The notes beneath the pieces were generated by a model. The model was not told the DNA's origin. It ran no database searches and worked only from the letters and a program-made list of their open reading frames with translations. Both the position numbers and the translations under genes were made by a program. DNA of 5,030 nt, taken from the IMG/VR virus record IMGVR_UViG_2534681831_000045; one strand, 5' to 3'. Shown here one piece after another: positions 2,591 to 4,560 of this stretch. How positions within the stretch are numbered: position 1 is the stretch's first letter; each line of letters starts with the position of its first letter. Origin of the DNA: a virus (lineage: Duplodnaviria; Heunggongvirae; Uroviricota; Caudoviricetes).

Positions 2591-3163
2591 TCATAATTCT
2601 GTGCTGGTGGCAGGAATTAATTTCTGCCAGATAGCGGAAACATATTTTGCCTGATGACGGGCATCAGCCAGGGCGTTGTGCCGTTCGCCATCGAAAGGCA
2701 TGTCCATTTTGGGGTCGAATCCGATGGAACGCCCAAGCGTAACGATCGTGCGTACATCGTGGTCATTCCAGTACGCCCACGGGCAGATTTGTCCTGCTCG
2801 CTCGTAAGCTCCACGTAAAATTACGTTGTCGAAGGTGGCCCCGTTACCCCAGACTTTTAAATATTTCGTATTGTCTGCGTGCCGGTTAATGAAATGGTTT
2901 AGTTCTGAGAGAGCATCGCTGATCGACAAAGTATCATCAATACAGATTGCAGCTCGCGCTTCAGGGCTTTGTTTCAACCACCACAGGATGGTATCGCCGT
3001 CAGGTGTAGCTCCTTGCTTCATAGCACTGTCTAGGCTGACAACCGCATAGAATTCTTGTCCGATGTCTCCGGTTTCTGGAGTGAAGAACACCGCGCCAAT
3101 GGAAACGATCGGTGCATCCTTATTTTTCCCCATCGTCTCAAGGTCGATCATTAAGTTGTTCAT
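2591..3163 (-). CDS. DEDDh-type 3'-5' exonuclease (DnaQ/RNase T-like), 190 aa, prophage-encoded
   Basis: Seen: the three Exo motifs are present: Exo I MIDLET (D-x-E), Exo II WGNGATFD, Exo III HNALAD (H-x4-D). A perfect SD AGGAGG sits 7 nt upstream of the ATG at 3163..3161. The track start at 3166 is a GTG one codon upstream. The start overlaps the upstream gene's stop (TGATG). Confidence 0.85.
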   Translation of the reverse strand: MNNLMIDLETMGKNKDAPIVSIGAVFFTPETGDIGQEFYAVVSLDSAMKQGATPDGDTILWWLKQSPEARAAICIDDTLSISDALSELNHFINRHADNTKYLKVWGNGATFDNVILRGAYERAGQICPWAYWNDHDVRTIVTLGRSIGFDPKMDMPFDGERHNALADARHQAKYVSAIWQKLIPATSTEL

Positions 3164-3897
3164 CACTTCACCTCCTGCGGCGGTTCCGGTAGCGGCATCC
3201 AGTGAGTTGCTTGCTCAATACCATTACCCGGCTTAATCGTTGCATCTCCGCGCCGAAAGGTGCTTCCGGTATAGCGTGCGGAGCATATTAGCGGTTCAAC
3301 CAGAGAGCTATCGAAATTCACCGAAATAAGCACGTTCTGGCCCTTTTCAGGCATTCGATCACTACAGCTTATCCAACTATCCGGAGTTCCCGGAGAGTTG
3401 CCATTTACATCGAAGTTTGGCTCTGCGTCCTGAACCAAGAGGATGTAACCATTCTTGGCTGTATCAAGTTCTAACGCTTCGGTGACGGTGCCGAAATAGC
3501 GATTACCTAAATCAGCATCACAAGTGCTTATATCAATGGAAACTTCCATGCCTTCGATTAATTCTGGCAAGTTGTAAGTTTGGCTTACAGGTTGGCTACC
3601 CTGAAGCATGGCGGCGCGGTGACACCAGATAATCCAGCCAAGCGCCATATCCCATGCCATGTATTCTCTATCGCCATTTTTTGCCCTACGGCGATCTACA
3701 GATTCCCCGAAACGCTTCTCCATAAATAATTCATAGGCTGCTCGTTCATCCGATACTGCTGCCAGTGATGCCAGTGTAATTTTTAATGCGGTAAGCATGT
3801 TGTTTTGATCTTCATCGAGTCCGAACGGTATTTCATCCCGTGCTGACTCAATGCTGGTAATCGTGTTCTGTAACCATTCTTTGGTAAGAGTATTCAT
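3163..3897 (-). CDS. Prophage protein with C-terminal DUF551 domain, 244 aa; N-terminal domain paralogous to the 4144..4560 gene
   Basis: Seen: ATG at 3897..3895 with AAGGTG upstream; stop TGA 3165..3163. Established knowledge, from memory: the C-terminal segment WISCSDRMPEKGQNVLISV...THWMPLPEPP matches the DUF551 signature common in lambdoid prophages. The N-terminal roughly 50 aa align with the neighbouring gene. Confidence 0.85.
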   Translation of the reverse strand: MNTLTKEWLQNTITSIESARDEIPFGLDEDQNNMLTALKITLASLAAVSDERAAYELFMEKRFGESVDRRRAKNGDREYMAWDMALGWIIWCHRAAMLQGSQPVSQTYNLPELIEGMEVSIDISTCDADLGNRYFGTVTEALELDTAKNGYILLVQDAEPNFDVNGNSPGTPDSWISCSDRMPEKGQNVLISVNFDSSLVEPLICSARYTGSTFRRGDATIKPGNGIEQATHWMPLPEPPQEVK

Positions 3898-3899
3898 AA

Positions 3900-4091
3900 C
3901 TATTTCACCTTAATCTCAACATTTCGCAGCTTTAGCTCTACTGGCAAGTCTGACTTTCCTGTTAATGCTAATGCGAGATTTTCAGGAGTAATGAGAGCTG
4001 TTATTGTTTTCCCCATCGCCAGACGAATAATCATTCGTATCTCGCGATCGTCACATGCTCCCGGTCGAACAATTGATATTTGTCCGTTCAT
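3900..4091 (-). CDS. Small hypothetical prophage protein, 63 aa (MNGQISIVRPGACDDREIRMIIRLAMGK...)
   Basis: Seen: the ORF-track start at 4112 is a TTG. An internal ATG at 4091..4089 is preceded by a perfect AAGGAG with a 6-nt spacer, so I place the start there. Stop TAG at 3902..3900 is 2 nt before the next gene's ATG. No family recognised. Confidence 0.6.
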   Translation of the reverse strand: MNGQISIVRPGACDDREIRMIIRLAMGKTITALITPENLALALTGKSDLPVELKLRNVEIKVK

Positions 4092-4143
4092 CTCACTCTC
4101 CTTTGATGCCAATGTTTACAGCCTGACAAGCCTCTTTGAGCAC

Positions 4144-4560
4144 TCAGTCAACAGCGTCTTTCCATGCTCCGGTTTCGACTGGCGGATTTTCACTCTTAAC
4201 CTGTTCATAGAAGCGCACCGCTTTAATCAATCCTTCGGGTGTCAGTGGCACAGGCTGGGCCGTGAATAACGCCTGAATTTCATAGTTCGGCCTGTCGTTG
4301 CAATCCTCTTTTGTCGGTACATATTTCCAGTCACCAACCCACGGCTTCTCCTGAAAGTTCGTAACGCCTTTTCTCACGTAGCGATATCGCCATGTCACCG
4401 GTTCGGCTTCCAGCGATACCAGCGCGACTTTAAATGCGGTAAGTACGTTTTTAACCACATCGATTTTGAATACTATTTCATCACATACAAACGATTTATC
4501 GTCTACTACCGTTTCAATTCCGGTAATCGTGTTTTGTAGCCATTTGGTTAATTCAGCCAT
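4144..4560 (-). CDS. Hypothetical prophage early-region protein, 138 aa; N-terminus paralogous to the DUF551 protein
   Basis: Seen: ATG at 4560..4558, stop TGA 4146..4144. The N-terminus MAELTKWLQNTITGIE...LTAFKVALVSLEA aligns with MNTLTKEWLQNTITSIE...LTALKITLASLAA of the 3163..3897 gene. The C-terminal half is unrelated and I do not recognise it. Confidence 0.75.
   Translation of the reverse strand: MAELTKWLQNTITGIETVVDDKSFVCDEIVFKIDVVKNVLTAFKVALVSLEAEPVTWRYRYVRKGVTNFQEKPWVGDWKYVPTKEDCNDRPNYEIQALFTAQPVPLTPEGLIKAVRFYEQVKSENPPVETGAWKDAVD

Follow-up and report, generated by a model that had tools for sequence, protein, structure and literature searches.

Several accessory protein families have been described in the early-left region of lambdoid phages and prophages, including EaA of P22-like phages, Ead/Ea22 of lambda, P22 and Shiga toxin (Stx) phages, and YfdS and YfdT of the CPS-53 prophage of Escherichia coli K-12. 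Full-length Ea22 of lambda is a tetramer, whereas its C-terminal domain alone is an inactive dimer, and the Ea22 variants of Stx phages are mosaics, one of which contains DUF551 (PMC10834534). YfdS also carries DUF551 (PMC4776307). Noguchi and Katayama reported that multicopy yfdQ and yfdR together with either yfdS or yfdT suppress hda-185 and inhibit initiation at oriC, that YfdR binds DnaA, and that deletion of yfdQRST has no phenotype (PMC4776307). No function of EaA or DUF550 was found in the literature searched. Here we consider two open reading frames (ORFs) encoding proteins of 138 and 244 amino acids (aa) in a stretch of 5,030 nucleotides of viral DNA (IMG/VR record IMGVR_UViG_2534681831_000045; the whole stretch is referred to as the window), which a first-pass annotation had described as adjacent prophage genes sharing an N-terminal domain. 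Both genes are members of the mosaic accessory family of the lambdoid early-left region that includes P22-type EaA, Ea22 of lambda and Stx phages, and YfdS/YfdT of CPS-53.

Both ORFs were confirmed on the minus strand at the positions listed in Table 1. BLASTP aligned residues 1-47 of the 244-aa protein with residues 1-52 of the 138-aa protein at 26 identities in 53 columns (E = 3e-9), and none of 2000 shuffles (mean 29.0, standard deviation 4.5) attained the Smith-Waterman score of 91, which rules out chance similarity of the N-termini. Formal alignment thus finds the similarity significant, and the two tests agree with the first-pass annotation that approximately 50 N-terminal residues are shared, including the stretch LTK(E)WLQNTIT(S/G)IE with 12 identities in 14 columns and the segment LTAxKxxLxSL present in both proteins. 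Beyond this shared part (hereafter the N-module), the proteins diverge as had been claimed, since the score of the remainders (25) falls within the range of shuffles (26.5±4.4), indicating that they are unrelated. The genes are neighbors in one operon, encoded on the same strand and separated by 246 bp; they are not strictly adjacent, as a 63-codon gene lies in between. This gene, the truncation of the 138-aa gene and the loss of the promoter-proximal operon region (see below) had been absent from the first-pass annotation.

A profile of the N-module was built from 10 copies (the two in the window and eight from the first protein search) and run against 1.84 billion representatives, with hits counted as clusters at 50% identity. 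It detected 823 clusters, 521 of them at E<=1e-10, and both window proteins fit it (E 4e-30 and 2e-25). Among the best 150 hits, the module starts at residue 1 in 143, follows an N-terminal extension of 28-70 residues in five, and has one residue fewer at the start in two. Its consensus is MSTITKEWLQQKIADMEAARDEIPFGLDEDDSNTLAALRIALASLEAEPVAW, ending in ALASLEAEPVAW, and it has no Pfam family. The module is the N-terminus of EaA in phages BTP1 (eaA), ST64T (Eaa1) and L (EaA-1), with 63-65% identity to the short-loop consensus (tblastn; 58-65% when further phages are included), and in BTP1 it begins precisely with the eaA start codon. Both window proteins match the profile of this EaA-type module (MxT[IL]TKEWLQ...PFGLDED...ALASLEA at residue 1) and share with EaA an early-left operon position between recombination genes and xis. 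EaA of P22-like phages differs in having a DUF550 body, and no PF04447 match was found in either window protein. The module also occurs in phi80, N15, HK140 and ST64B as well as in Erwinia, Klebsiella and Enterobacter phages, and short-loop-like DNA was detected in 584 of 5426 complete E. coli genomes (~11%). A survey of the domains attached to it showed extremely diverse C-terminal parts: of 133 representatives, 24 carry DUF551, four DUF550/MazG-like dATP/dGTP pyrophosphohydrolase and one a Lar-like zinc ribbon, and approximately 100 have no Pfam domain.

Two subtypes of the N-module could be distinguished, which differ by a loop indel of 6-7 residues: a short-loop subtype with RDEIPFGLDED, found in the 244-aa protein and representing the majority EaA type, and a long-loop subtype with DDKSFVCDEIVFKID, found in the 138-aa protein, in which SFVCDEIVFKI takes the place of PFGLDED. 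Each subtype occurs in other phages on other bodies. Nine loop residues (R20, D21, I23, P24, F25, G26, L27, E29 and D30) are nearly invariant across the 133 representatives. The ratio of nonsynonymous to synonymous divergence (dN/dS) amounts to 0.17 among short-loop modules, 0.62 among long-loop modules and 0.46 when the two classes are compared with each other. In a separate observation, five proteins (P0178, P0192, P0291, P0294 and P0238) were found to carry a cysteine-rich segment of ~70 residues fused in frame before the N-module. Such fusions make up four of the five non-N-terminal cases in the top 150, the fifth being P0212, and the single Lar_restr_allev match among the 133 representatives most likely belongs to one of them.

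The remaining parts of the two proteins connect the pair to other members of the family. In the four-module 244-aa protein, residues 37-97 are 72% identical (44/61, E 2e-30) to the body of YfdT of K-12 CPS-53 (AYELFMEKRFG..VDRRRAKNGD.EYMAWDM.LGWIIW), a sequence that is not present in the 138-aa protein, and DUF551 is shared with YfdS. YfdT itself has a different N-module (MTTFTNKELIKE...) and YfdS another again, both being two-module proteins, so that the 244-aa protein unites in one chain the YfdT-like and DUF551 types that are separate proteins in CPS-53. The region between them has no Pfam match. The exact 244-aa sequence is found on at least 1000 contigs under the name DUF551 domain-containing protein. 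RefSeq/PGAP, however, calls this intact ORF two partial DUF551 pseudogenes (3163-3402 and 3601-3897; L001 and L084 12163-12897), which looks like an artefact of piecewise matching of a mosaic to reference proteins; owing to their mosaicism, intact proteins of this kind are annotated as pseudogenes. The gp27 protein of phage mEp460 has the same architecture but combines the long-loop module with the 244-type body. Further variation was observed in a 181-aa protein of locus L052, in which the N-module is joined directly to SQTYNLPE, and in P0324, in which an extra module is inserted at the NSPV.PDG joint.

The 138-aa protein matches phrog_660 (E 4e-38) and has no Pfam match. The first-pass annotation had assigned DUF551 to the 244-aa protein, which is correct, and an unrecognised tryptophan-rich domain to the 138-aa protein; the latter holds for Pfam, in which the Trp-rich part has no family, yet this part is a widespread module with 941 hits among clusters at 90% identity. 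The helical module that follows it also ends the 199-aa and 288-aa Ead/Ea22-type ORFs of related loci. The 138-aa ORF is a nonsense-truncated allele: its TGA stands where homologues of 155-156 aa have TGG, and the ancestral stop lies 48 nt downstream. Two such homologues (P0051 and P0052, 155-156 aa), which read on past this position, are 99% and 87% identical to the 138-aa protein. The exact 138-aa form was found on 135 contigs and two 155-aa forms on at least 1000 each; the 155-aa form is present in most related viral contigs, and the truncated allele is in the minority. No match was obtained in PADLOC for the 244-aa, 138-aa or 63-aa proteins or in NCBIfam for the 244-aa or 138-aa protein, and the PHROG matches of all three are of unknown function. 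For an anti-defence or host-takeover role, of the kind that the first-pass annotation associated with phage early regions, the support is circumstantial and comes from the fusion of the N-module to MazG-like dATP/dGTP pyrophosphohydrolase in four, and to a Lar-like zinc ribbon in one, of the 133 representatives.

Each protein is thus built from small portable modules that are strung together at short conserved in-frame joints. The joints of the family are ALASLEAEPVAW, CRAAMLQGAEPV and NSPV.PDGW. The first follows the N-module in 105 of 131 representatives, (W)NACRAAMLQGAEPV (motif CRAAMLQG) follows the helical middle module in 65/131, and NSPV.PDGW precedes DUF551. The protein ends are likewise restricted, namely ...AAPQQEVK before the stop codon (63 of 131 representatives) or ...NIGIKGE, and many Ead/Ea22-like proteins encoded upstream of the 63-aa gene terminate in ...IGIKGE or ...IRIKGE. 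At the operon junctions of the window (3161-3180, 3895-3911 and 4089-4104), genes are 0-3 nt apart or overlapping, and the Shine-Dalgarno sequence of each downstream gene sits in the last codons of the upstream gene; for instance, the IKGE codons hold the Shine-Dalgarno sequence AAAGGAGAG (4104-4096) of the 63-aa gene. The C-terminal tails ...PQEVK, ...KVK and ...IKGE are therefore conserved because they carry the next ribosome-binding site, and represent translational-coupling junctions. Together with the in-frame joints, such tails allow domains to be swapped without breaking the operon.

This arrangement raises the question of whether the shared sequence has been kept solely for DNA or RNA reasons, as homology patches and translation-initiation context. 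The ribosome-binding sites in the 3' tails, the sharp recombination breakpoints and the similarity of otherwise unrelated N-modules at both ends would be expected in this case. The latter modules, one of which has PF13935, are alike in their first ~8 residues (M-x-T-[IF]-T-[KR]-E/K-x-L) and last ~12 residues (IALASLEAEPVxW), which could reflect distant common ancestry or convergence at both ends. However, amino acids are kept in spite of high synonymous divergence (dN/dS 0.17-0.47), and synonymous variation in the codons of the EPVA joint ranks among the highest, the pairwise codon identity at E-P-V-A being only 0.23-0.48, which makes such an explanation very improbable. Because synonymous positions in its codons are free to vary, the joint ALASLEAEPV was rejected as a recombination patch conserved as DNA; what is conserved at the joint behind the N-module is the protein sequence and not the DNA sequence.

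The first-pass annotation had proposed a duplicated, domain-shuffled gene pair, of which the shuffling is real and the duplication is not. Local tandem duplication in the operon, with one copy later swapping its C-terminal domain, might be suggested by the presence of the same N-module class in two genes 246 bp apart on the same strand of one operon. On the other hand, the two N-modules differ by a dS of 0.78 and a dN of 0.33 in addition to the loop indel of 6-7 residues; they are old paralogous subtypes, and recent duplication or gene conversion between the window copies was rejected based on this dS. Each subtype is found elsewhere on other bodies and is commonly the sole copy in a genome, and gp27 of mEp460 pairs the long-loop subtype with a 244-type body. 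Moreover, loci with two N-module genes (22 of 83) are confined to close relatives of this prophage, and the upstream slot holds Ead/Ea22-like genes in relatives, including mEp460, in which such a gene occupies the place of the 138-aa gene. Duplication in place is thus the least probable of the explanations considered here.

Bodies are also exchanged among N-modules. The 244-type body occurs at 97-98% identity behind at least five N-modules, and the Trp-rich body behind at least 14 N-module classes, including the PF13935 coiled coils of Ead/Ea22 (P0068, P0101 and P0160 combine PF13935 with the 138/155-aa body). Four N-module classes are common to both types of body, and the Trp-rich body precedes DUF551 in P0116 and P0147. 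Slot variability was assessed across 81 related loci, in which the slot between the 63-aa gene and the exonuclease gene exo contains a gene of 128-319 aa. The flanks of the slot are conserved: the 63-aa gene is 92-100% identical in 48/81 loci, and exo is 96-100% identical in 33 loci, starting directly after the variable gene in 28 of these. Over the stretch from xis to the 63-aa gene, the window is 95.8% identical to mEp460. DNA identity to this phage lies at 0.9-1.0 throughout the 244-aa and 63-aa genes except at ~3800-3865 (0.4-0.67), and is lost entirely above ~4131. Considering the old divergence of the subtypes and the exchange of both subtypes and bodies elsewhere, the pair was assembled by modular recombination rather than local duplication, and it was recombination that brought the two old N-module subtypes into one operon.

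With regard to Ead/Ea22, the likeness lies in the operon region near xis, in the combination of an N-terminal helical part with swappable C-terminal domains, and in a shared mosaic C-terminal region, as PF13935 N-termini precede the Trp-rich and helical body that is also found in the 138/155-aa protein. The N-modules themselves are different. Neither window protein has a PF13935 (IPR025153) hit by hmmscan at E<=0.1, and the N-module was rejected as an Ead/Ea22 relative after hhalign comparison with 15 Ead/Ea22-type proteins of related loci (probability 0.5%). Ead/Ea22 has a long coiled coil and the N-module a short hairpin, and the tetramer state and pro-lysogenic effect have been shown for Ea22 only.

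The structure of the 155-aa homologue was predicted by AlphaFold2 with an alignment of 89 sequences, replacing a poor single-sequence model of the 138-aa protein (predicted local distance difference test score, pLDDT, 54). The N-module is predicted to be an alpha-hairpin (helix-loop-helix) of ~50 residues with helices at residues 2-19 and 27-51 (pLDDT ~70-80). It is followed by a beta module with strands at 54-67, 73-75, 79-81 and 93-99 (pLDDT 76-85) and two less confident C-terminal helices. As read from the sequence, the second helix of the hairpin (LAALRIALASLEAE) is Ala-rich with Leu at a spacing of 3-4. Foldseek found no match with E<0.4 in the PDB; in BFVD, the top match was an Ead/Ea22-like protein of an Erwinia phage (E 3e-5, low TM-score), and this phage also carries the N-module. 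A PDB sequence search returned nothing for the 244-aa protein and only noise at E>0.3 for the 156-aa homologue.

Based on these predictions, we propose that the N-module may be a self-association handle, in which alpha-hairpins would pair to form a bundle of helices. Such a handle and the Ea22 coiled coil would be able to replace each other in function, and the handle would present variable C-terminal domains as a multimer, and the C-terminal domains could be effector or ligand-binding parts acting on host processes early after induction or infection. That the N-module is a handle of this kind, interchangeable with other helical N-modules and presenting variable C-terminal domains, is a tentative view that we hold at somewhat less than even strength. 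The combined explanation, in which family membership arose by recombination among mosaic genes and an oligomerisation handle displays variable effector domains, appears the best overall and is slightly favored.

Several points weigh against this proposal. Self-association is a prediction, the monomer structure is modelled at no more than moderate confidence (mean pLDDT 67) with generic fold matches, and the N-module has no sequence relation to Ead/Ea22. A binding motif would account for the near-invariant RDEIPFGLDED no less well than a hairpin turn, and the dN/dS of 0.62 in the long-loop class implies weak constraint. The effect observed in K-12 came from overexpression, with no phenotype for the yfdQRST deletion (PMC4776307), and the N-modules of K-12 YfdS and YfdT differ from the one studied here. 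In addition, the 138-aa gene is truncated in the window and no promoter-like site was found in 3100-4720.

Some of these features would be better explained if the N-module were an adaptor that binds one common host or phage partner and brings diverse C-terminal domains to the same place. The nine nearly invariant loop residues across 133 representatives and the acidic PFGLDED loop, the dN/dS of 0.17 in the short-loop class and the location of the module nearly always at the extreme N-terminus are in line with this possibility. However, the bodies are combined with at least 14 unrelated N-modules, coiled coils among them, which indicates a generic physical role of N-modules, and the long-loop subtype has SFVCDEIVFKI instead of PFGLDED. 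We therefore regard an adaptor as unlikely, and the self-association handle as the better account of the module.

By gene-fusion logic, the union of YfdT-like and DUF551 domains in the 244-aa protein suggests that the two may act in the same pathway. If so, this fusion would mark one pathway, possibly replication-initiation control with YfdQ and YfdR, and it offers a concrete lead on function because YfdS and YfdT were interchangeable in the only K-12 assay available. It is also conceivable, though rather doubtful, that the EaA N-module, the joints and the fixed slot upstream of xis (beside exo in window-type phages) constitute a combinatorial effector-display system of enterobacterial temperate phages. 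In that case, one handle of ~50 residues would multimerise or dock on a common host complex while carrying at least 800 distinct, mostly unknown C-terminal domains, a few of which can be identified as nucleotide-pool enzymes (MazG-like DUF550) or restriction alleviation proteins (Lar), and the slot would represent a large, unexploited source of domains for host takeover or counter-defence. Polymorphic cassette-type effector families are similar in having a constant N-terminal handle, hundreds of unrelated C-termini and exchange at conserved joints, but here no secretion or toxin role is indicated, immunity genes are lacking and the proteins are small cytoplasmic phage early proteins, so that the likeness is an analogy only.

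The feature is real but ordinary: modules are swapped among mosaic early proteins of phages, which form a large family that is already recognised. For Ea22, encoded in the same genome region, shuffling of domains downstream of a common N-terminal part has been described before, and the proteins are common database entries. Three things are not catalogued, namely the family formed by the N-module, the joints that go with it and the YfdT-DUF551 link; the shared module can now be delimited and named as the N-terminal handle of EaA proteins. The locus itself, a decayed prophage with the mosaicism expected of the lambdoid early-left accessory region, matters little.

All 5,030 bases of the window match E. 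coli O111:H8 strain 8B at 100% identity, and bases 1-4682 likewise match many O111 genomes at 100%. The window belongs to a defective prophage of the mEp460 type that lies at dusA in E. coli O111:H8; in strain 8B, the neighboring genes are lexA, dinF, yjbJ, zur and a DUF2713 gene, followed by the prophage. The 138-aa ORF, the 63-aa gene, the 244-aa ORF, exo and xis form a tightly packed minus-strand operon. In O111:H- strain 11128, a cI-like repressor, yfdP, yfdQ, yfdR, a hypothetical gene and an S-adenosylmethionine (SAM) methyltransferase precede the 138-aa gene, which is followed by the 63-aa gene, the 244-aa gene, exo and xis. This operon is colinear with CPS-53 (yfdP-yfdQ-yfdR-yfdS-yfdT-torI). 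There, yfdS and yfdT are flanked by yfdR and the excisionase-like torI, a placement that parallels the position of the window genes after yfdPQR in 11128. The gene pair therefore belongs to the early-left operon of a lambdoid prophage, and its placement in a phage early region by the first-pass annotation is borne out by the gene order of 11128. The coordinates of all features are summarized in Table 1.

Table 1. Coordinates of the features in the 5,030-nucleotide window (position 1 is its first base).
Feature	Position	Strand	Description
dusA (tRNA-dihydrouridine synthase) 5' fragment	1071-1175		Marks the prophage end
Excisionase, PrtN-type (xis)	2273..2581	-	PF11112, phrog_1300; operon end
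3'-5' exonuclease (Rv2179c-like; exo)	2591..3163	-	PF16473, E 1e-75; conserved downstream flank of the variable slot
Tail ...PPQEVK and stop	3161..3180	-	Shine-Dalgarno AGGAGG (3176-3171), 7 nt before the exo ATG; stop overlaps ATG (TGATG)
244-aa four-module protein	3163..3897	-	N-module, YfdT-like, unknown middle, DUF551; intact ORF
DUF551 domain	3175..3378	-	Residues 174-241; PF04448, E 1.3e-21, 77.7 bits versus cutoff 22
Middle region	3379..3588	-	Residues ~104-173; bounded by joints SQPV and NSPGTPDSW
YfdT-like domain	3589..3750	-	Residues 50-103: ERAAYELFMEKRFGESVDRRRAKNGDREYMAWDMALGWIIWCHRAAMLQG; ends in joint motif CRAAMLQG
N-module, short-loop subtype	3757..3897	-	Residues 1-47: MNTLTKEWLQNTITSIESARDEIPFGLDEDQNNMLTALKITLASLAA
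63-aa gene	3900..4091	-	phrog_1222; conserved upstream flank of the variable slot
Premature TGA (4146-4144), 16 orphaned codons and ancestral stop (4095-4093)	4093..4146	-	Orphaned codons: VLKEACQAVNIGIKGE
C-terminal helical module	4096..4248	-	PEGLIKAVRFYEQVK...GAWKDAVD[W]VLKEACQAVNIGIKGE; interrupted by TGA
138-aa ORF	4144..4560	-	Nonsense-truncated allele of a 155-aa early-left-operon protein
Trp-rich beta module	4261..4401	-	Residues 54-100: PVTWRYRYVRKG...GDWKYVPTKEDCNDRPNYEIQALF; portable
N-module, long-loop subtype	4402..4560	-	Residues 1-53: MAELTKWLQNTITGIETVVDDKSFVCDEIVFKIDVVKNVLTAFKVALVSLEAE; predicted two-helix hairpin
IS1203 (IS3-family) end	4677..5030		Terminal inverted repeat readable, ends at 4677; integrase-core (rve) domains

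Compared with 11128, ~5 kb of the operon and immunity region are gone beside the insertion sequence (IS) IS1203 in 8B (L001 13719-14447 versus L084 13707-19563). The missing genes are the methyltransferase, the hypothetical gene, yfdR, yfdQ, yfdP, both repressor-type regulators and ymfL. This loss removed the promoter-proximal part of the operon, and the pair is probably silent in 8B as a result. Whether it is an inert relic in this strain, not expressed and partly broken, is a closer question, and we put the chance only a little below even. The TGA truncation of the 138-aa gene, the IS1203-associated loss of yfdP, yfdQ, yfdR, the methyltransferase, the repressor and the pL-equivalent region, the lack of a promoter-like site in the window between 3100 and 4720, and the absence of replication or immunity genes from the locus annotation of the 8B prophage all point in this direction. 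Nevertheless, the 244-aa ORF and its neighbors are intact and identical across many O111 genomes, and read-through from the IS or weak promoters may provide some expression. In any case, a relic state would concern activity in 8B only and not the family identity of the genes.

Some minor features of the window were also observed. On the minus strand, positions 4569-4586 form a 7-bp GC-rich hairpin with a GAAA loop (ACCGCCC-GAAA-GGGCGGU), located 8 nt before the ATG of the 138-aa gene and with no T-run after it, and the 71-nt leader of this gene folds with a z-score of -2.5. The same leader lies upstream of another N-module gene, where it has been read as part of the called protein P0212. The 63-aa protein is weakly similar to the last 35 residues of a PHROG that bears the annotation DNA methyltransferase (E 5e-6). 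No integrase gene lies beside xis in the window; in mEp460, the integrase gene is located beyond the 178-aa gene, which suggests that attP lies between int and the 178-aa gene. Two plus-strand genes, 1319-1855 (178 aa, phrog_4350) and 2052-2225 (57 aa), are located between the prophage end and xis in a region of low GC content (0.41-0.44). The 178-aa protein has no Pfam match and ends in a YYESFGF motif, which we take to be GNAT-like, and both genes may represent moron cargo.

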